Positions 4,487 through 29,450 of a DNA stretch of 64,000 nt are shown here, piece after piece. This DNA comes from Patescibacteria group bacterium (GTDB lineage Bacteria; Patescibacteriota; Microgenomatia; UBA12405). The notes under the pieces are model-generated. The model saw nothing but the letters and a program-made list of their open reading frames with translations, had not been told where the DNA came from and did no database searches. The first letter of the stretch is position 1. Every line of letters starts with the position of its first letter. The translations under genes and the position numbers were made by a program. The stretch covers positions 169,897 to 233,896 of the forward strand of contig WARW01000022.1 in assembly GCA_013387215.1 (NCBI GenBank), in the 5' to 3' direction.

Positions 4487-5530
4487 ATGTCATCTTTGAC
4501 CCAAACTGCTTACATGAGCAGAAATTTAATTAAATACGGCGGAAGTGGACTCGTAATCTTTTTGATTATGTGGTCGATTATTACTGGAGCAGTCAAAGCA
4601 TACAACTTAGCCCATCCTAAATATATTCCACCAACAGTCAAATATGGAGTGATGCCTAAAATTGTATTTCCAGAAAAACAATTTAACAAGAAAAATTTTA
4701 CTTTTGAATTTCCGAACGATTCGGCACCAAAATTTAAAGATCAATCTAAGGTATTTATTATTTATCGCCCAAACAGCAGCTTTTTGGCGCTTGAGGACGA
4801 TACAAAAACTGCGTCTGATTTAGGTTTTAGTTCCAAACCAACTGAAGTAAAAGAAGGGGTATATGAATTTAAAAATGATAATTTAAATCGTACTTTGACG
4901 ATGAATGTGCTAGATGGCAGCTTTAAAATGGAATATCCATTTCAAAATGACCAAATGCTTTTGACTCCTGGAAATGTTCCAGCAAAAGAAGAAGCTATCG
5001 CAATTGCATCTGCATATTTAAAAACCGGAAATAAATATGCATCTGATATTGAACAAGGCACTCAAAAAGTAAGCTTTTGGAAAATTGAGTTTGATGGACT
5101 GAAAGCTGCTGATTCCCAATCGGATGCGAATGTAGCGAGAGTTGATTTTTATCGAAAAAATTTGGAAGATGATTTAAAAATATTATCTCCAGAGGTGAAT
5201 AAAGCATCAATTTCAGTTTTAGTTTCCGGTTCTACGGTTGATAATAAAAAAATAATTCAAGTGGATTACAAATATGCCAATATCGACAGAGAATCTTTTT
5301 CTACATATCCAATCAAAACATCAGAGGAAGCTATTGCAGAATTAAAAGCCGGTAATTATTGGCCAGCCATAGATGTGAATTCTAATAACGTAATAATCAG
5401 AAAAGTTTACTTGGCATATTTTGAACCGGTAACTTTGACCAATTACATGCAGCCAATTTATGTTTTCGAAGGTGATAATAATTTCGTGGCTTACGTCCCA
5501 GCAATCATAGATAAATACGTCCAAAAATAA
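4487..5530 (+). CDS. Hypothetical membrane-anchored protein
   Basis: Long ORF with a single N-terminal TM helix, divergent from gltX; no recognisable domain. Confidence 0.45.
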   Translation: MSSLTQTAYMSRNLIKYGGSGLVIFLIMWSIITGAVKAYNLAHPKYIPPTVKYGVMPKIVFPEKQFNKKNFTFEFPNDSAPKFKDQSKVFIIYRPNSSFLALEDDTKTASDLGFSSKPTEVKEGVYEFKNDNLNRTLTMNVLDGSFKMEYPFQNDQMLLTPGNVPAKEEAIAIASAYLKTGNKYASDIEQGTQKVSFWKIEFDGLKAADSQSDANVARVDFYRKNLEDDLKILSPEVNKASISVLVSGSTVDNKKIIQVDYKYANIDRESFSTYPIKTSEEAIAELKAGNYWPAIDVNSNNVIIRKVYLAYFEPVTLTNYMQPIYVFEGDNNFVAYVPAIIDKYVQK

Positions 5531-8460: not shown

Positions 8461-10134
8461 TCAAATAAGAAATATTTCTTTGACCATAAGTTGGGGAAGA
8501 GTTGTGTTATTCCAAGTGTTAAGTTCGAGTCGGGCAATAATATCAACATGATCACCCACTTTTAATTGACCATCCATTGATCCTTTTTTGAAAGCAATCG
8601 CATCGGCACTAATGTTTTCTAATTTTTTTGTGTCTGGATCATCAAATTTTAATTTTAAGTGATCCCCTGTTGAACCAACTAATCTTTTCTGAGAAACAAC
8701 TAAATCTTTAAATAAAAACAATGGTTCTGAGTTATCGATTCCAAATGGTTCAAGTTTTTTTGTTATCTGGCAATTTTTGACAGTGACAGCTTCCAGTTTC
8801 ATTTCTGCATCAACAGTGACAGACGGTTTTAAATCCAAGCCAGCTAATTTTTTATTAACAATTTTAGTTAATTCTTTTTTTAATTTTTCAATTTTTTTAG
8901 TTTCAATACTAAAACCAGCGGCTCCAGCATGGCCACCAAGATCGATAAATAAATCTGATACCTCACGAAGACTTTCTATAATATTTAGTTCTTTTATTGA
9001 ACGGCAAGAACCTTTGGAAACTTCTTCACCAACACTTATGGCAATACAAGGCAAATAATTTTTTTCAGTTAACCGACCAGCGATCAGACCAATAATTCCG
9101 GGATTGAAGGAAGGATCGTAAACAAACAATAGTTTGTCTGGCGAATCAGTTGATGCATTTTTTCGAATATTTTCTTCGGCAAGATCGAGACTGTCTTGTT
9201 GAAGCACTTGACGGTCTTTGTTGAATGAATCTAAAACTTTGGCATATTTATCGGCATAAAGTGAATTTGAACTGCATAAGAGACGCAAAGCATCGGTAGG
9301 ATTAGAAAGCCGGCCAACAGCATTAATTCTGGGACCTAAAATATACCCTAAATCATAGGCAGAAATACTATCGGCCTTAACACCACTTACTTGAACTAAT
9401 TTTTTAATTCCAGGACTGGGATTAAGCCTTAATGACAATAAACCATGAACCACGATGCTGCGATTAATGCCATTTAAAGGCATACAATCTGCAACTGCAC
9501 CTAAAGCTGCCAAACCTAAGTCAGCATTGGGGTTGAATTGCGAGGCCAATAGCCAGGCAAGAGTACAGCCAGACACTTGGGTTGAATGGACAATTGCCAG
9601 AGCGTTTGGCAATTCAGAGGTGGGCAAATGGTGATCCGTAATAATAACTTCAGTGCCAGATTCAACGATTTTTTCAATTTCTTTATTGGCGACGATTCCA
9701 TTATCAACAGTAATCAGTAGAGAGAATTTTTTATCTTTTTCCTTTTCGAAGGCGAAAAATGATTTTGCTTTAATACCATAGCCATCGTGTTCACGGTCGG
9801 GAATGAATGGCAAAACTTTTAGACCAGCATAACGCAAAGATTGCCAAAGAACTGCGGTTGAAGTGATGCCATCAACGTCATAATCTCCATAAATCAGGAC
9901 ATTTTCTTCATTCTTAATCGCTTTTTTAATTCTATCAACAGCTTTATTGAGTTGTTTTTGGCTGACTTTATATTGTTTTGGGGTTAGAGTTCCTGGAAAA
10001 ACAGGTTTTAAAAAATCGCTAATCTGATCTTTTTGAATATTTCTATTTTTTAAAAGCAAATCCAAAAAATCCAACTCAGAAAAGTCTTTTTCAATTACAG
10101 TCTTTGACTTAATAATAATTTCAGGTTTATTCAT
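8461..10134 (-). CDS. recJ: Single-stranded-DNA-specific exonuclease RecJ
   Basis: DHH motifs IYGDYDVDGITS and ITDHH, DHHA1 domain GGHAGAAG, C-terminal OB domain. Confidence 0.85.
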   Translation of the reverse strand: MNKPEIIIKSKTVIEKDFSELDFLDLLLKNRNIQKDQISDFLKPVFPGTLTPKQYKVSQKQLNKAVDRIKKAIKNEENVLIYGDYDVDGITSTAVLWQSLRYAGLKVLPFIPDREHDGYGIKAKSFFAFEKEKDKKFSLLITVDNGIVANKEIEKIVESGTEVIITDHHLPTSELPNALAIVHSTQVSGCTLAWLLASQFNPNADLGLAALGAVADCMPLNGINRSIVVHGLLSLRLNPSPGIKKLVQVSGVKADSISAYDLGYILGPRINAVGRLSNPTDALRLLCSSNSLYADKYAKVLDSFNKDRQVLQQDSLDLAEENIRKNASTDSPDKLLFVYDPSFNPGIIGLIAGRLTEKNYLPCIAISVGEEVSKGSCRSIKELNIIESLREVSDLFIDLGGHAGAAGFSIETKKIEKLKKELTKIVNKKLAGLDLKPSVTVDAEMKLEAVTVKNCQITKKLEPFGIDNSEPLFLFKDLVVSQKRLVGSTGDHLKLKFDDPDTKKLENISADAIAFKKGSMDGQLKVGDHVDIIARLELNTWNNTTLPQLMVKEIFLI

Positions 10135-10357
10135 GACAATAGCTTTAATTTTACACTGTTTTTATTAAAGCTAGGCATATATAAAAATTATATAAAAAAA
10201 CTTGATTTTCAGGGAAAAAGTGATATTATAGGTTGCATTACGAGCGAAAGCTTGTAATAAATTATTATATCGGCTTTGCCGATACTGACGAGTTTAGGTT
10301 CAAATTAAGCTTTGAGCCAGAACAGAGCCAGTGGTACTTTAAAAATACGGATTACCC

Positions 10358-10411
10358 GAGAGCTTGGGCTCATTGTGGGCAGCGCGCTGCCTAGAATGAG
10401 CACAAGCGCTC
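10358..10411 (+). promoter_or_regulatory. Long imperfect hairpin leader (apical palindrome GGCAGCGCGCTGCC) at the predicted 5' end of the 10439 transcript
   Basis: About 17-bp stem GAGAGCTTGGGCTCATT/AATGAGCACAAGCGCTC directly downstream of TTTAAAAAT (-10-like), about 28 nt before the start codon; homologous element before the paralog at 11229. Confidence 0.4.
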
Positions 10412-10438
10412 AAAGTTATAAATTAGGAGGTAATAGGT

Positions 10439-10906
10439 ATGAAAAAATTATTTTCAAGATGGTTCTTGATCCTTATATTGGTGGCTATCTTGTCCGCTTT
10501 TGCTGTTTGCTACGGAGTATCCGCATCAAATGCAAAACATACAACAGACAAATTCACGGTAGAAAATATAAATGGTGAGGTCATCTTGTCTAATTTCGAC
10601 AAAGACATTGCCTCTTATGTTGGACACCAAAGCAGTTATACTGCTACCGGGACTCACGAGTCTACCAGTCTGACAATTAATGTTGGACCTGGCGAATACG
10701 GTATAGTTGGCGGATCAAAAGTATTTTATTTTGATGACTTCTACACTGTTGTCGGACCTGGAACTTATACGTTTCAAGTCACTGACGGCTTTGCAGAAGT
10801 TGTTAATAGTAAATACGCAGCCAAACAGTGGCAATACAGATTGTGGCAAACACAAAAAAATAAATGGTCACTGAAAGGAACCTACAATACACTTTTAAAG
10901 TGGTAA
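10439..10906 (+). CDS. Small secreted protein, paralog A (signal peptide; GPG.YT..TDGF..VV C-terminal block)
   Basis: RBS AGGAGG 8 nt upstream; signal peptide with AxA-like site; paralogous to 11229..11633. Confidence 0.6.
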   Translation: MKKLFSRWFLILILVAILSAFAVCYGVSASNAKHTTDKFTVENINGEVILSNFDKDIASYVGHQSSYTATGTHESTSLTINVGPGEYGIVGGSKVFYFDDFYTVVGPGTYTFQVTDGFAEVVNSKYAAKQWQYRLWQTQKNKWSLKGTYNTLLKW

Positions 10907-10972
10907 TCCGTAAGGGCAGAATTGTTAAATCTTAATAAACTTTATGTTTATTATTTTTTATACTTTTCTGTC

Positions 10973-11028
10973 CTTTGGTCTATTGGTAAACCAATACTGA
11001 TGAGTCCGTTTTGAGGACGAAACCGAAG
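10973..11028 (+). ncRNA. Hammerhead ribozyme, type III (copy 1)
   Basis: CUUUGG-U-C^ / stem I UAUUGG-UAAA-CCAAUA / CUGAUGA / stem II GUCC-GUUUUGA-GGAC / GAAA / CCGAAG; all 11 invariant core nucleotides present, cleavage site GUC at 10978-10980. Confidence 0.85.
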
Positions 11029-11143
11029 AGGTATAGTTTTTTGGGAAATTTGTGCTAAATTACATTAGTTGTAAACTAAAATGGTTATTAAAAATAGCTT
11101 TTAATAGTCATTAGCACTTTAAAAAAGGTTGAATTGTTGTGAA

Positions 11144-11201
11144 ATGAGCTTGAGCTTGTTGTGGACAGTATTTTTACTGTTTAGAATGAGCTCAAGCTCA
11201 A
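11144..11201 (+). promoter_or_regulatory. Long hairpin leader (apical palindrome ACAGTA-TTTT-TACTGT) at the 5' end of the 11229 transcript
   Basis: 13-bp perfect stem GAGCTTGAGCTT/AAGCTCAAGCTC just downstream of TTTAAAAAA; same architecture and basal-stem sequence as 10358-10411. Confidence 0.4.
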
Positions 11202-11228
11202 ATTCTAAGAAGAAAGAAGGTGAGTTAA

Positions 11229-11633
11229 ATGAAAGGAAGGCGTTTTTTGGCTGCATTTTTGACTGTTTTAATTGTTTTTGTTTGTGTTTCAATACCTGCG
11301 TTTGCACATACTTGCAAACATGTAGACGTGAATATTGACAATTACCAATCAAACGGAGTTTATCAATCAACAGGGGTGGGTGTGACAAAAACAATAACGT
11401 TCTACGTTTGCCCAAACCAAATTGGCGTGCTTGGAGCCAATAAATATGGCGGCTACACTGATGGAGTTTACAAAACTTTTGGACCTGGATGGTACACAGA
11501 GACACTGACAGATGGTTTTGTGAATGTTGTAGACAAATCCGATGCCTGGAAAGAATGGACATACAGACTTAAAATGGCACGGGACCATAAGTGGGCAGCT
11601 AATCATCTTTTCACCAATGCGTTACCTAAGTAG
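11229..11633 (+). CDS. Small secreted protein, paralog B
   Basis: RBS GAAGGTGAG; signal peptide ..SIPAFA; C-terminal block GPGWYTETLTDGFVNVVDKSDAWKEWTYRL aligns with paralog A. Confidence 0.6.
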   Translation: MKGRRFLAAFLTVLIVFVCVSIPAFAHTCKHVDVNIDNYQSNGVYQSTGVGVTKTITFYVCPNQIGVLGANKYGGYTDGVYKTFGPGWYTETLTDGFVNVVDKSDAWKEWTYRLKMARDHKWAANHLFTNALPK

Positions 11634-11698
11634 CAATTCAACCTATGGATAGGAAATTTTATTTATAAGCAATTGCTTATTTATATTATTTCTTATCC

Positions 11699-11753
11699 TT
11701 CGGTCTATTGGTAAACCAATACTGATGAGTCCGTTTTGAGGACGAAACCGAAG
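11699..11753 (+). ncRNA. Hammerhead ribozyme, type III (copy 2)
   Basis: Same core as copy 1 with stem III CUUCGG/CCGAAG; the G-C pair here is G.U in copy 1, a compensatory-type difference; cleavage after C11706. Confidence 0.85.
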
Positions 11754-11878
11754 TGTAAGAATTGTGTTTTTTGTGATGTATGTTATATAATTTAATTAGT
11801 TAGTAGTTGTCGCCAACAACTTTTAATGAGGTTTAAACCTTTTAATTTAGTTTAGGAAAAGGAGAAATTCTTGATACT

Positions 11879-12148
11879 ATGGCAAAAAAATTATTTGTAG
11901 GCAATCTCCCATTCGCAATGAATGATGATCAGCTAAGAGAAATCTTTGCCGCTTATGGCAATGTCGTCTCTGCAAATGTCGTTATCGACAGATATGCAAA
12001 TAGGAGTAAAGGATTCGGTTTCGTTGAATTCGAAAACGAAGAAGATGCTTCTAAAGCATTAGCTTCATTAAATGGAACTGAACAAATGGGCAGAAATATT
12101 GCTGTTAAAGAAGCTTTAGCAAAGCCCGAAAGACAAGATAATCAATAA
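11879..12148 (+). CDS. RRM-type RNA-binding protein
   Basis: RNP-2 LFVGNL and RNP-1 KGFGFVEF motifs; 89 aa single RRM. Confidence 0.8.
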   Translation: MAKKLFVGNLPFAMNDDQLREIFAAYGNVVSANVVIDRYANRSKGFGFVEFENEEDASKALASLNGTEQMGRNIAVKEALAKPERQDNQ

Positions 12149-19615: not shown

Positions 19616-19633
19616 GGTAAAATACACTATCCT

Positions 19634-19933
19634 AGAGAAGCTGAAGGGTTAACTCCGACGTAAAGCCGGAGAGGAAAGTCTGGACCACAAAAAGCAAGGA
19701 ACTTAAAAATATAGAGCAAGGCGTGAGCTTTGGGCAATGCTACAGAGACGAGTAGTCCCGCAAGGGATGAGATGAAACGAGCATCCTTCCTGTGGAAATC
19801 TCAAGTTGAGACGTTTGTATCTGGCTTCCCGAAGTAAATTCGGGATCAGGTTCGAAAGAATCTGATTTGAGAGTCTCAGGTGGAGAGAATAGATAGATGA
19901 CCCATAAACAGAATCCAGCTTAACAGTTTCTCT
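19634..19933 (+). ncRNA. rnpB: RNase P RNA (bacterial type A)
   Basis: P1 pairing AGAGAAGCUG/CAGUUUCUCU; P4 strands GAGGAAAGUCUGG and ACAGAAUCCAGCUUA match the universally conserved RNase P regions; TAAAAT -10 element 11 nt upstream. Confidence 0.8.
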
Positions 19934-19941
19934 GGGATATT

Positions 19942-27833: not shown

Positions 27834-29450
27834 TTAATCATTTTTTACCGCATTTTTGTTGATTTTACTACCGACAATGACACTGCTGGTGCGAACTTCG
27901 CGGATAACAGTGACTTTTATCTGACCTGCCCACTTAGCTTCTTCTTCCAAATGTTCGGCAATATTTTGACTTAATACTTCCGCTTCAGTATCAGAAACTA
28001 TTGATGGTTCAACAATAACAACAACTTCTCTTCCGGCTTGATAAGCAGCGACACTTAGTACACCTGGAAAGTTTTTAGCAACTTCTTCAATGTTCTTCAT
28101 TCGCTTCAAATATTCTTCATGAACTTCATATCTAGCACCAGGACGAGCTCCAGAAGCTGCGTCACCAATATAAACGATAATTGATTCAATAGAAGAGAAT
28201 TCTTTATCCTCATGGTGTTCAGAGACACAATTTATGACGGCTTCGGAAATCTTGAATTTTCGTAAAAGATCAACACCGAGATCGATGTGGGTTCCTTCCT
28301 GGTCGGTAACCACTTTTCCGATATCATGCAATAAAGCGCCTTGTCGGACAATGTTGACATCTGCTTTTAGCTCATATGCAATAGCGGTAGCAATTTTGGT
28401 TGCCTCAATGGTGTGTTTAGCAAGGTTTTGACCATAAGAATATCGGTATTTATATTTTCCAATTTCTTTCATCAAATCGATTGGAAGATTGAAAACGCCG
28501 ACTTCTTGGCAAATTCTTTTACCTTCATTAGTCAAGATTTTATCCATTTCAGTTTTAGTTTGAGCAACAAGCTGTTCAATTTTAAGAGGCTGAATTCGGC
28601 CATCTTTAATTAATTTTTCAAGAGAGATGCGGGCAATTTCACGACGAGTAGAATCGAAAGAAGAAATTCTGATGTCATTGGTTTCATCAAGTTCCAACTC
28701 TACACCAGTAGCTTTTTCAAAAGCTCGAATATTTCGTCCTTCACGACCAATAATCTTACCTTTAATCTTTTCGTCTGGCAAAGAAATTGTGGAGACAGTA
28801 TATTCAGCGACATAGTCAGTTACACCATGTCGAATACAATCAACAATTATTTCTTTGGCTAAATCGTCTTCTTTGCTTTTAATTTCTTCATTAGCTTCTT
28901 CGATCTTTTTAGCAATCCAACTGGTCATTTTCTTTTCAGTGCTACTGATGATTAATTTTTTTGCTTTTTCAACGTCGAGTCCAGAAATATTTTCTAGTTT
29001 TTCAAGTTGTTTTTTATAAAGATCATCAACACTAGCTAATTTAGTTCTGATTTCAGCAGCTTGGCTGTCAAGTGTTCTTTCTTTTTGGATCATGTAACGC
29101 TCTTTCTCATCAAGAGAAGCGAGTCGCTGGAAAATTTCGGCTTCTTTAGCTTTGGCTTCACTTTCAATCTTTTTAGCATTTTGCAAAGCAAGTTGAATGG
29201 AAGCTTCGACTTGAGCGGTATTAACAGCTGGAGCAACAGCAGTGACTACAGGAGCTGCAGGTTCTGAAGCTTGTGATTTTTTAGGCGCAAATACCACTCT
29301 ATTTTTATTGGTATCTTTGGAATCCTTTGCATCCTTACTGTCGACACTGACTTTTGTAATAACTGGGGTTTCGGTTTTTTTAGCTGTATTACCAGCAGTT
29401 TCAGGCACCGAAAATAAACCTTTAACCTTCGATAAAAAATAATCTAACAT
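27834..29450 (-). CDS. rny: Ribonuclease Y
   Basis: KH domain GREGRNIRAFEKATGV; HD domain LLHDIGK; coiled-coil N-terminus. Confidence 0.85.
   Translation of the reverse strand: MLDYFLSKVKGLFSVPETAGNTAKKTETPVITKVSVDSKDAKDSKDTNKNRVVFAPKKSQASEPAAPVVTAVAPAVNTAQVEASIQLALQNAKKIESEAKAKEAEIFQRLASLDEKERYMIQKERTLDSQAAEIRTKLASVDDLYKKQLEKLENISGLDVEKAKKLIISSTEKKMTSWIAKKIEEANEEIKSKEDDLAKEIIVDCIRHGVTDYVAEYTVSTISLPDEKIKGKIIGREGRNIRAFEKATGVELELDETNDIRISSFDSTRREIARISLEKLIKDGRIQPLKIEQLVAQTKTEMDKILTNEGKRICQEVGVFNLPIDLMKEIGKYKYRYSYGQNLAKHTIEATKIATAIAYELKADVNIVRQGALLHDIGKVVTDQEGTHIDLGVDLLRKFKISEAVINCVSEHHEDKEFSSIESIIVYIGDAASGARPGARYEVHEEYLKRMKNIEEVAKNFPGVLSVAAYQAGREVVVIVEPSIVSDTEAEVLSQNIAEHLEEEAKWAGQIKVTVIREVRTSSVIVGSKINKNAVKND

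Follow-up and report, generated by a model that had tools for sequence, protein, structure and literature searches.

Long hairpins in mRNA leaders are a familiar kind of element. In T7 R1.1-type signals and in the pnp and rnc leaders of E. coli, long irregular hairpins set mRNA ends and half-life. Internal loops in the T7 R1.1 and pnp leaders direct single-strand cuts by RNase III. The stabilizers of E. coli ompA and of B. subtilis aprE and ermC work from the very 5' terminus of the primary transcript. In S. aureus saePQRS, the RNase Y cut lies 6 nt upstream of, and requires, a 24-bp double-stranded element; the fragment downstream of the cut is stabilized, and the guiding is reported to be independent of the sequence at the cleavage site (Marincola & Wolz 2017, PMC5449607). 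Multiple bacterial and prophage hammerhead ribozymes flank single genes and process polycistronic RNA (Perreault et al. 2011, PMC3088659).

The locus described here combines such parts. It lies in a 64-kb stretch of DNA (the window) from a Shapirobacteria-like (CPR) genome. It contains two short paralogous genes for small secreted proteins, A and B, each with a long hairpin (hp1 and hp2) in its leader and a type III hammerhead ribozyme directly 3' of it; the ribozymes were overlooked in the initial annotation. The features are collected in Table 1. The module looks like one of the ordinary mRNA processing and stability kind in an unusual combination. Our preferred reading, which we hold tentatively and at somewhat less than even odds, is that each hairpin is a sense-strand, cis-acting RNA element of the mRNA 5' leader that determines processing and stability.

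Table 1. Features of the two-gene locus and of the RNase Y gene, in positions of the window
Feature	Position	Strand	Basis or description
Promoter, sigma-70-like, TTGATT-16-TATTAT with TG extension	10202..10229	+	Promoter scan, 9/12; prediction only
Hammerhead-like relic, leader A	10268..10323	+	Sequence reading and fold
Leader motif TACTTTAAAA	10335..10344	+	Comparison of leaders
Leader hairpin 1 (hp1)	10358..10411	+	Fold, covariance-model score
Paralog A	10439..10906	+	155-aa protein, N-terminal signal/TM segment
3'-UTR hairpin (AAGGGCAGAA ... UUCUGUCCUU)	10913..10976	+	Sequence reading
Type III hammerhead ribozyme 1	10974..11028	+	RF00008 match, intact core
Leader motif CACTTTAAAA	11115..11124	+	Comparison of leaders
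Leader hairpin 2 (hp2)	11145..11200	+	Fold, covariance-model score
Paralog B	11229..11633	+	134-aa protein with signal peptide
3'-UTR hairpin, gene B	11641..11704	+	-25.6 kcal/mol
Type III hammerhead ribozyme 2	11698..11753	+	RF00008 match, intact core
RNase Y gene	27834..29450	-	NCBIfam TIGR03319 equivalog and signature motif

In the protein of paralog A, a C-terminal domain of some 95 aa is conserved and has no assigned function. Paralogs A and B are 36% identical over the shared domain. The AF2 model of paralog B has a pLDDT of 84.9. The neighbors of the cassette encode RecJ, AspRS, an RRM protein, and the CCA enzyme. The units are tandemly duplicated, and relatives differ in the whole cassette region that separates RecJ from RRM. 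The initial annotation offered the hairpins as a binding site for the neighboring RRM protein. This was not supported: the order RecJ, RRM, CCA is also present in two relatives (L141 and L142) that have neither cassette nor hairpin, so the adjacency of the RRM gene comes from the site of cassette insertion.

Both hairpins were found where the initial annotation had placed them (10358-10411 and 11144-11201), the second with slightly refined ends. hp1 contained about 25 pairs and three 1x1 mismatches, among them a conserved G.G (G10375/G10394). The Shine-Dalgarno sequence AGGAGG (10425-10430) starts 13 nt past its end. hp2 contained 16 pairs, a G.G mismatch (G11161/G11184), and 9 further pairs under a UUUU loop, and the Shine-Dalgarno sequence of gene B lies 16 nt downstream. 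The hairpins never overlap the Shine-Dalgarno sequence or start codon. The minimum free energy was -36.3 kcal/mol for hp1 (z-score, -5.4) and -38.2 kcal/mol for hp2 (z-score, -8.8), and 0 of 200 shuffles were as stable in either case. When all 70-nt windows on both strands of the 64 kb were folded, these two hairpins were the two most stable (-38.2 and -36.9 versus a mean of -9.5 and a standard deviation of 4.2).

The apical palindromes described earlier, GGCAGCGCGCUGCC and ACAGUAUUUUUACUGU, are both present. The shared base (GAGCUUG.GCU / AGC.CAAGC) is present as well, but the best-conserved part is the middle of the stem and not its base. This middle reads GCUYRUU-G-UGGRCAG ... CUGYYUA-G-AAUGAGC and includes a G.G mismatch and a neighboring G.U pair, neither of which varies among the copies. 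Neither stem is followed by a U-tract (the sequences directly after them are AAAGUUAUAAAU and AAAUUCUAAGAA), and a terminator scan flagged neither, in agreement with the earlier view that they are not intrinsic terminators. No Rfam 15 family matched the hairpins, whether by E-value on the locus or by gathering score on the whole window; the sole overlap was a chance match to mir-556 (19.4 bits versus a gathering score of 84). The models for twister, twister-sister, pistol, hatchet, and hairpin ribozymes gave no match to the hairpins at E<=10.

A third homologous hairpin precedes the orthologous gene in a related genome (L135/L136). Like hp1, it contains 24 to 25 pairs with small internal loops. 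In the three-way alignment, 93.4% of cells were paired, and 8 of 26 pairs had changed on both sides, a statistic matched by 0 of 500 shuffles. Four more pairs had changed on one side in a wobble-compatible manner. The 12 invariant pairs of the 26 cluster around the G.G/G.U center, and base and apex covary freely. The third copy and this covariation support the claim that structure is kept while sequence drifts. The complete copies number three and come from two genomes, and two of them are paralogs, so shared ancestry inflates the apparent conservation.

Conservation at orthologous loci was found in part. L135 keeps the hairpin, and the closest relative (L132/L137; RecJ 78% identical) lacks it. 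That relative retains the gene and the ribozyme, and in place of the hairpin a short stem surrounds its Shine-Dalgarno sequence and start codon. The contig of another related locus (L131) begins inside the apparent 3' arm of a probable fourth copy (GCUGUUAGUUGAG...); its 5' arm is unassembled, and the covariance model (R1) gives it no score. At the same leader position, other genes for small secreted proteins carry nonhomologous long hairpins in related genomes (L144 and L146). The three hairpins of L144 were considered as homologues of those in the window and rejected because the shared UGUGG...CUAGA is out of register.

Within the window and nine related loci, R1 found only the three known copies. 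A loose hairpin pattern gave 120 matches in a viral scan, and 0 of these were hairpin-like on folding. The 9 matches of a metagenome scan belonged to two unrelated sequence families, and none was a hairpin. The refined core pattern had 0 matches in genome contigs and 0 in viral contigs, and the hairpin had no blastn match among phages and plasmids. A protein-based locus search of genome contigs produced a 26-sequence alignment without a usable conserved stretch, and a 4-sequence protein alignment searched against genome contigs found no relative. The motif is so far confined to a few genomes.

Pairing was much better on the sense strand. The + strand folds at -36.3 versus -31.0 for hp1 and -38.2 versus -27.1 for hp2, because several hairpin pairs are G.U. 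All three copies behaved in this way (-36 to -38 versus -27 to -31 kcal/mol). R1 also scored the sense strand higher in all three (75 to 81 versus 33 to 43 bits; hp1, 75.1 versus 43.3; hp2, 80.6 versus 34.8). The hairpin is therefore an RNA element.

This result bears on the idea that the hairpin is a DNA-level palindrome, whether a miniature mobile or REP-like element, an attC-like recombination site, or a dimer operator. Such an origin would suit the presence or absence of the hairpin as a whole block between orthologous leaders (winB versus L132), the variable region between RecJ and RRM, and the tandem duplication of units. Integron attC sites, too, are imperfect palindromes that separate short ORFs poor in promoters within a variable, tandem array of cassettes. 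By reading, however, the hairpins have no R/L core sites (GTTRRRY/RYYYAAC), no extrahelical bases, and no adjacent integrase; their mismatch is the symmetric G.G. Unlike in attC, G.U pairs and one-sided changes preserve their pairing only at the RNA level and in the sense strand. The conserved half-stems are 20, 24, and 23 nt apart in the three copies, a variation compatible with an RNA loop and incompatible with a dimeric DNA site. The absence of further copies in the window and nine related loci, and of real matches in the viral, metagenome, and genome scans, also counts against a DNA element, and we consider it very unlikely.

The invariant center could have another cause. The hairpin may be a sequence-specific operator for a trans-acting protein or RNA regulator, with nuclease processing secondary. 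The invariant G.G/G.U helix would then be a putative binding site controlling translation or decay of the secreted-protein mRNAs. Twelve invariant pairs are more sequence constraint than a structural stabilizer needs, and the proteins encoded downstream share only about 36 to 43% identity over aligned regions. The adjoining invariant block YACTTTAAAA could belong to the same site. On the other hand, the cassette holds no candidate regulator, the RRM neighbor is unrelated to cassette presence, the element is missing in the closest ortholog, and, with three copies, the invariance could be shared ancestry. We judge an operator unlikely, though it deserves consideration. Identity comparisons of hairpin against coding sequence by global alignment carry no weight here, because AT-rich DNA has a baseline of about 60%.

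The initial annotation expected transcription to start just past TTTAAAAAT/TTTAAAAAA. That string proved to be part of the YACTTTAAAA block, which is identical in the four leaders compared and has no -35 partner. By reading, all four lack a -35 element or TG extension at the right spacing, and TTTAAAAA(T/A) lacks the final T of the -10 hexamer in three. A sigma-70 scan found no promoter at the TTTAAAA motif, and no start was predicted that would make the hairpin the primary 5' terminus. Promoters in these genomes resemble the sigma-70 consensus, for example that of the L135 RRM gene (TTGATA-18-TATAAT with TG). Near-consensus promoters lie upstream in L135 and L144 (11/12 and 11/12 with TG). 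Relative to the starts predicted from them, ACTTTAAAA falls near +26 to +33 and the long hairpin near +42 to +56. Because the block lies 26 to 33 nt past the predicted start in these related leaders, the hairpins are probably internal to their leaders.

The sigma-70-like promoter of the window is likely the start of the cassette transcript. Its predicted start is near 10236, which would put hp1 at about +122. From hammerhead 1 to hp2, the scan found no sigma-70-like promoter on the + strand, which makes an intercistronic position of hp2 probable.

These predictions weigh on the model of the initial annotation, in which TTTAAAAA(T/A) serves as the -10 element, the transcript begins a few nucleotides 5' of the stem, and the hairpin works as a 5'-terminal stabilizer of the primary transcript, as in ompA and aprE. 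The hairpins resemble the ompA and aprE/ermC stabilizers in being stable stem-loops 5' of a free ribosome-binding site, and a stem a few nucleotides from the 5' end is the classic stabilizer geometry. The distance from YACTTTAAAA to the stem is 12 to 23 nt in three leaders, and TAAAAT within the L135 block agrees with a -10 element at 5/6 positions. Unlike in those stabilizers, the predicted start here is 56 to 122 nt upstream of the hairpin. Besides the poor promoter match of the block and the better promoters upstream (winA, L135, and L144), conserved small hairpins 5' of the motif suggest that this region is transcribed. The motif occurs again in L144, some 100 nt past a 12/12 promoter, where two tandem hairpins flank it. 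A primary 5'-terminal stabilizer is therefore improbable in our view. With the predicted start this far upstream, stabilization of the 5' end requires that a processing step be assumed.

Leader A also contains a hammerhead-like relic. It reads, in order, as a hairpin resembling stem I (UAUCGGCUUUGCCGAUA), the segment CUGACGAG, and a hairpin resembling stem II (GGUUCAAAUUAAGCUUUGAGCC). It has AGAAC in place of CGAAAC and no stem III, so it is probably inactive. Rfam gave no match at this position at E<=10. The reading is tentative because a divergent RecJ promoter-like site on the - strand overlaps it.

Two other leader features were rejected. An upstream ORF could begin at the AUG in the conserved UAGAAUGAGC, but by reading it has no Shine-Dalgarno sequence, and its frame and length differ in the three copies. 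An 11-nt complementarity joins UACGGAUUACC (10346-10356) to the stop region of gene A (10901-10911). It is near chance for a region of this size (by a rough estimate, about 0.4 such pairs), and its apparent second helix is the TTTAAA palindrome.

Hammerhead 1 matched Rfam RF00008 with 30.3 bits (E=7e-4) and hammerhead 2 with 44.7 bits (E=6e-8); neither reaches the gathering score of 48.5 bits, and both matches are significant. Both contain the catalytic core (CUGANGA ... GAAA and a cleavage triplet NUH). Both copies, like three related loci, retain an intact GUC / CUGAUGAG / CGAAAC. The RNAalifold consensus of the five hammerhead sequences contained 18 pairs, 9 of them changed on both sides, in the three-stem type III layout with stems I and II closed and stem III open. 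Cleavage of hammerhead 1 is predicted after GUC (C10980/U10981). That of hammerhead 2 is predicted at C11705/U11706, 725 nt past the first site.

Each gene also has a hairpin ahead of its ribozyme. That of gene A abuts stem III of hammerhead 1, and the 3' arm of that of gene B overlaps the 5' strand of stem III of hammerhead 2. Hairpins of this kind also stand before the L132 and L135 ribozymes. By reading, L131 has an intrinsic-terminator-like hairpin and a T-run at the position of the ribozyme in the other loci, which fits a 3'-end-forming role for the ribozyme. As in the clusters of Perreault et al. (PMC3088659), at least two hammerheads in the same orientation bracket one short gene, and cutting of a polycistronic RNA into gene-length mRNAs is predicted. 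Unlike those clusters, this one lies in a CPR chromosome with no phage genes nearby, and each of its type III ribozymes is accompanied by a 3' hairpin and by a conserved hairpin in the 5' leader.

The window encodes RNase Y, a candidate trans-acting endonuclease for hairpin-guided processing. The gene product scored 458.7 bits against TIGR03319 (cut-off, 454.35). The RNase Y-guiding element of saePQRS needs about 24 bp of double-stranded RNA with a single-stranded region 5' of it, in an organism that encodes RNase Y. The stems here have 25 to 26 positions and single-stranded flanks, and they lie in a leader or between cistrons. The downstream saePQRS mRNA begins with the stem and is stabilized, and by analogy the same may be true here. 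Unlike saePQRS, with which they share no sequence similarity, these hairpins have an invariant 15-bp core with G.G; no conserved sequence is reported as a requirement there. Because RNase Y guiding is reported to be independent of the cleavage-site sequence, the processing model alone leaves the sequence conservation of the hairpin unexplained. Two further observations count against it. A passive stabilizer would need no invariant 15-bp core, and the closest relative (L132/L137) dispenses with the hairpin.

The hairpin might instead be processed by RNase III alone, like the T7 R1.1 signal or the pnp and rnc leaders. The enzyme would then cut the stem close to or at the G.G mismatch, and decay or maturation would follow. 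RNase III substrates contain at least about 20 bp of near-continuous double-stranded RNA, as do hp2 (16 + 9 pairs), hp1, and the L135 copy. The stem of 25 to 26 bp makes about two helical turns. Its lone conserved internal mismatch, 9 to 10 bp from the loop, resembles the loops that direct single-strand cuts, and its position in the leader or between cistrons is also that of RNase III processing hairpins. The sequence, however, is unrelated to those of the T7, pnp, and rnc hairpins, and no RNase III signature or gene was found within the 64-kb window. The enzyme's little sequence specificity would also leave the invariant core unexplained. We consider an RNase III-only site rather doubtful. 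It is a variant of the processing and stability explanation, and the two overlap. A role for the hairpin in 5' stability or as an RNase target, as initially suggested, is viable.

We infer each step of the processing and stabilization model from these features. Transcription would begin upstream of the hairpin, for gene A from the promoter near 10202-10229. For gene B, the route would probably be read-through from gene A with self-cleavage by hammerhead 1. An endonuclease that recognizes long double-stranded stems would cut the single strand just 5' of the stem, in the manner of RNase Y, or alternatively within the stem, in the manner of RNase III. The part recognized by the enzyme or protein would be the invariant stretch of some 15 bp at the center of the stem, which holds the G.G mismatch and the G.U pair. 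The 25- to 26-bp hairpin left at or near the new 5' end would block 5'-end-dependent decay, and the Shine-Dalgarno sequence, 13 to 16 nt downstream, would stay free. Self-cleavage of the hammerhead would set the 3' end of the same mRNA and leave a 3'-terminal hairpin. The outcome would be a discrete, stable, monocistronic mRNA from each cassette.

A broader reading joins these parts. The leader hairpin, small secreted-protein gene, 3' hairpin, and hammerhead may form a movable, self-contained cassette, possibly CPR-specific, that could duplicate and move. The G.G helix would be the site of a dedicated factor. The RNA between the hammerhead cuts (10981-11705), with hp2 and gene B, could be ligated into a translatable circular mRNA of 725 nt. 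This joint reading is highly speculative, and we give it very little credence.

If the processing and stability model is true, the locus would be an example from the poorly studied CPR/Patescibacteria of an mRNA with both ends set posttranscriptionally. The 5' end would come from a conserved hairpin-guided cut and the 3' end from a self-cleaving ribozyme that replaces a terminator. It would give bacterial hammerheads a natural function outside prophages. It would also provide a compact, testable set of parts: the hairpin, its G.G mismatch, the YACTTTAAAA block, and RNase Y.

The names carried by the closest RecJ homologs identify the host as a Candidatus Shapirobacteria-like CPR bacterium. In the cassette region, one unit occurs twice in tandem, with ~725 nt from copy to copy. 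Each copy consists of a leader with a long hairpin (hp1 or hp2), a gene, a 3' hairpin, and a hammerhead. The two genes, paralogs A and B, encode small proteins with an N-terminal signal/TM segment that are 36% identical across 88 residues. For the cassette protein, close relatives are nearly absent; its C-terminal domain (~95 aa) was found in 132 cluster representatives by a full HMMER search. The window also contains an RNase P RNA, and its best match to an archaeal model contrasts with the bacterial (Shapirobacteria-like CPR) genes of the window.

Coordinates of features in the window and at related loci (L-handles)
Feature	Location	Strand	Details
RecJ gene	8461-10134	-	divergent; left border of cassette region
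Cassette region	10135-11878		between RecJ and RRM-protein genes
Promoter candidate	10202-10229		TTGATT-16-TATTAT with TG; upstream of hp1
Hammerhead-like relic (putative)	10268-10323	+	leader of paralog A
Motif YACTTTAAAA	10335-10344, 11115-11124; L132 400-409; L135 3883-3892; L144 1448-1456
hp1	10358-10411		-36.3 kcal/mol, z = -5.4; better than 200/200 shuffles
Paralog A	10439-10906		155 aa
Hammerhead 1	10974-11028	+	type III; directly 3' of paralog A
hp2	11145-11200		-38.2 kcal/mol, z = -8.8; better than 200/200 shuffles
Paralog B	11229-11633		134 aa
Hammerhead 2	11698-11753	+	type III; directly 3' of paralog B
RRM gene promoter/5' UTR	11760-11878; L132 1040-1158; L131 560-683; L135 5175-5298
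RRM-protein gene	11879-12148		right border of cassette region
RNase P RNA	19633-19934	+	RF00373, 101.7 bits
RNase Y gene	27834-29450	-	TIGR03319 equivalog, above cut-off
Related hammerheads	L132 ~937-1010; L135 ~4516-4588		3' of orthologs
Further hammerhead	L144 1184-1246
Third hairpin copy	L135 3908-3962		-37.4 kcal/mol, z = -6.8
Promoter candidate	L135		TTGACA-17-TAAAAT, 11/12
Other long hairpins	L135 4599-4668; L144 1461-1530, 2636-2705, 2731-2800; L146 2421-2490, 2826-2895, 3501-3570

Both hairpins exist as the initial annotation reported, with the apical palindromes and common basal sequence that it described. No U-tract follows either one, and they are indeed not terminators. They ranked first and second by stability among all 70-nt folds computed for either strand of the 64-kb window (-38.2 and -36.9 kcal/mol, against a mean of -9.5 and a standard deviation of 4.2). 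The stem is conserved at its base, as had been noted, but the best-conserved part is the middle, which was under-described (5' strand, GCUYRUU-G-UGGRCAG; 3' strand, CUGYYUA-G-AAUGAGC). It includes a G.G mismatch and an adjoining G.U pair in both hairpins.

The copy at the related locus L135 has the same core, G.G mismatch, and G.U pair, and its base differs. The three sequences were aligned as one helix of 26 pairs, which is 93.4% paired. Eight of the 26 pairs are altered on both sides, 4 are altered on one side (wobble compatible), and 12 are invariant. The structure was therefore kept despite sequence drift, as had been claimed. The pairing score was approached by none of 500 shuffles and by no slid register. 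RNAalifold finds the same helix again and, on this alignment, no other conserved structure from the leader motif to the start codon. The sense fold beats the antisense fold by 5 to 11 kcal/mol in all three copies, and a covariance model derived from this alignment gives 75 to 81 bits sense versus 33 to 43 bits antisense. The conserved half-stems are 20, 24, and 23 nt apart. Covariation, sense-strand preference, and variable spacing make the hairpin an RNA element of the mRNA strand and not a DNA operator. An attC site was also considered and rejected on the attC criteria. The hairpin matches no Rfam family. The covariance model found no extra copy in the window or nine related loci, and pattern scans of viral, metagenome, and species-representative genome collections gave no genuine hit. 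The hairpin is rare.

Syntenic loci of four kinds were retrieved by exact-protein look-ups. L135 and L136 contain a hairpin, a 155-aa ortholog, a hammerhead, a second long hairpin, an unrelated 130-aa gene, and a terminator between AspRS-RecJ and RRM-CCA. L132, L133, L134, and L137 contain an ortholog of 129/139 aa, which shares 63% identity with paralog B, and a hammerhead between RecJ and RRM-CCA, with no long hairpin. This group is the closest relative (RecJ 78% identical to that of the window). The L131 contig starts 50 nt ahead of the gene, apparently within the 3' arm of a hairpin, and has a terminator-like hairpin and T-run in place of the ribozyme. L138 to L143 contain RecJ-RRM-CCA or RecJ-CCA (RecJ 68 to 71% identical) and lack the cassette. 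Given this variation among the related loci, the entire cassette is an insertion at a variable position, and its place beside the RRM gene is incidental. The initial annotation had listed binding by the RRM protein as one option for the hairpins. Conservation at orthologous loci holds in L135 but not in L132 and L137, where a short stem (CACGGAU/AUCCGUG) encloses the Shine-Dalgarno sequence and GUG start. Since these loci lack the hairpin, it is dispensable.

The 10-nt leader motif, which ends in TTTAAAAA, does not vary among the four leaders that were compared. It lies 12 to 23 nt 5' of the long hairpins and is also retained in the leader without one. It is not enriched in the whole window (5 matches versus 2.15 expected). 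Transcription had been placed just after TTTAAAAA(T/A), which is poor as a -10 element, and better promoter candidates lie upstream. Read as a sigma-70 -10, the motif has no -35 or TG extension at workable spacing, and the last hexamer position is A, not T, in three of the four leaders. Recognizable promoters in these genomes are near consensus (e.g., TTGATA-18-TATAAT with TG at the L135 RRM gene). At L144, from the L135 genome, two other genes for small secreted proteins have leaders with promoters of 12/12 and of 11/12 with TG. The L135 promoter and the L144 promoter at 1388-1415 are each followed by a small hairpin, ACTTTAAAA at ~+26 to +33, and a long hairpin at ~+42 to +56. A near-copy of the motif, AACTTTTAAAAA, lies between two tandem hairpins 3' of the second L144 promoter. 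On balance, with starts predicted from sequence, the hairpins are probably internal to leaders and not at primary 5' ends. Since no plus-strand promoter-like site was found between hammerhead 1 and hp2, gene B may owe its expression to read-through and ribozyme cleavage, and hp2 would then be intercistronic. The RRM gene is preceded by a separate conserved promoter of its own with an extended -10 (TGTTATATAAT in the window, L132, and L131; TGTTATAAT in L135) and has a conserved 5' UTR with two small hairpins, GUUGUCGCCAACAAC and AGGUUUAAACCU.

The initial annotation overlooked both hammerheads. Their RF00008 scores (30.3 bits, E = 7e-4, for hammerhead 1 and 44.7 bits, E = 6e-8, for hammerhead 2) are under the Rfam curated threshold of 48.5. 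Both nonetheless have a complete catalytic core, GUC / CUGAUGAG / CGAAAC, and they are the only full core-pattern matches within the 64-kb window. They have 51 identical nucleotides in common. A 3'-UTR hairpin precedes each ribozyme and abuts stem III. Aligned with those of three related loci, they show the three canonical stems, and 9 of the 18 pairs are altered on both sides. The L132 and L135 hammerheads differ in stem II sequence. A full-text literature search returned no relevant paper on hammerheads in Patescibacteria/candidate phyla radiation. The leader of paralog A contains what looks like a decayed hammerhead, read from sequence only. Hairpins corresponding to stems I and II flank CUGACGAG; AGAAC replaces CGAAAC, and stem III is missing. 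Small hairpins 5' of the motif in other leaders have the loops AUAGC, UCAAGC, and AUGGC. Because these are similar to stem II loops in the active L132/L135 ribozymes, the leaders may descend from decayed ribozymes.

The hairpin stem is 25 to 26 bp, with single-stranded flanks, 13 to 16 nt 5' of a free Shine-Dalgarno sequence. The setting is a leader or intercistronic, and the mRNA 3' end is ribozyme-cleavable, beside a 3' hairpin. From this anatomy, the saePQRS precedent, and the RNase Y gene in the window, we propose that the hairpin would define, and then protect, the processed mRNA 5' end. The hammerhead and 3' hairpin would set the 3' end, and the outcome would be a discrete monocistronic mRNA. 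The closest documented mechanism is hairpin-guided endonucleolytic processing. In Staphylococcus aureus saePQRS, an RNase Y cut 6 nt upstream needs a 24-bp double-stranded element, similar to the stem here, and the fragment downstream of the cut is stabilized (PMC5449607). Cleavage here is predicted. A ribozyme as 3'-end former fits the terminator-like hairpin that takes its place in L131. The obvious alternative is that RNase III cuts within the stem. Its signature was not found in the 64-kb window. A sequence-specific factor could instead bind the helix. The invariant 15-bp core and G.G mismatch are the main argument for such binding, and the processing model does not explain them.

Two Logan contigs end near these elements. 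L001 (1-60) breaks exactly where the stretch common to both hammerhead copies begins, and L131 (1-50) breaks inside the presumed hairpin. These ends are assembly breaks at repeats/palindromes, not biological ends.

Other long hairpins were also observed. The one between the L135 hammerhead and the unrelated 130-aa gene folds much better antisense than sense (-32.5 versus -22.7 kcal/mol), opposite to the hp1/hp2 bias. L144 contains three copies of another (AAAGGAGAGAUCUGGAGUGUGGCUCCUCUAGAGUYUCGCACCCCGUUUCUCCUUUG) in leaders of ~250 to 380 nt that precede other genes for small secreted proteins. Two of the three are in tandem, 3' of a 12/12 consensus promoter. Those of L146 (Shapirobacteria GCA_037142555.1) are near perfect. 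Long hairpins in leaders appear to be habitual in the Shapirobacteria-like lineage.

Hammerhead clusters that cut polycistronic RNA have been documented around single genes in bacteria and prophages (PMC3088659), and the hammerheads here likewise bracket single genes. A dedicated ribozyme-bounded expression cassette, including a possible 725-nt circular mRNA between the hammerheads, is unlikely, because orthologous loci have one ribozyme only and that study reports that circular or spliced products were not detectable. Leader hairpins that govern mRNA processing or stability are a well-known kind, as are hammerheads that bracket single genes. The novelty lies in the particular hairpin motif, its combination with predicted 3' ends formed by ribozymes, and the lineage of the host.
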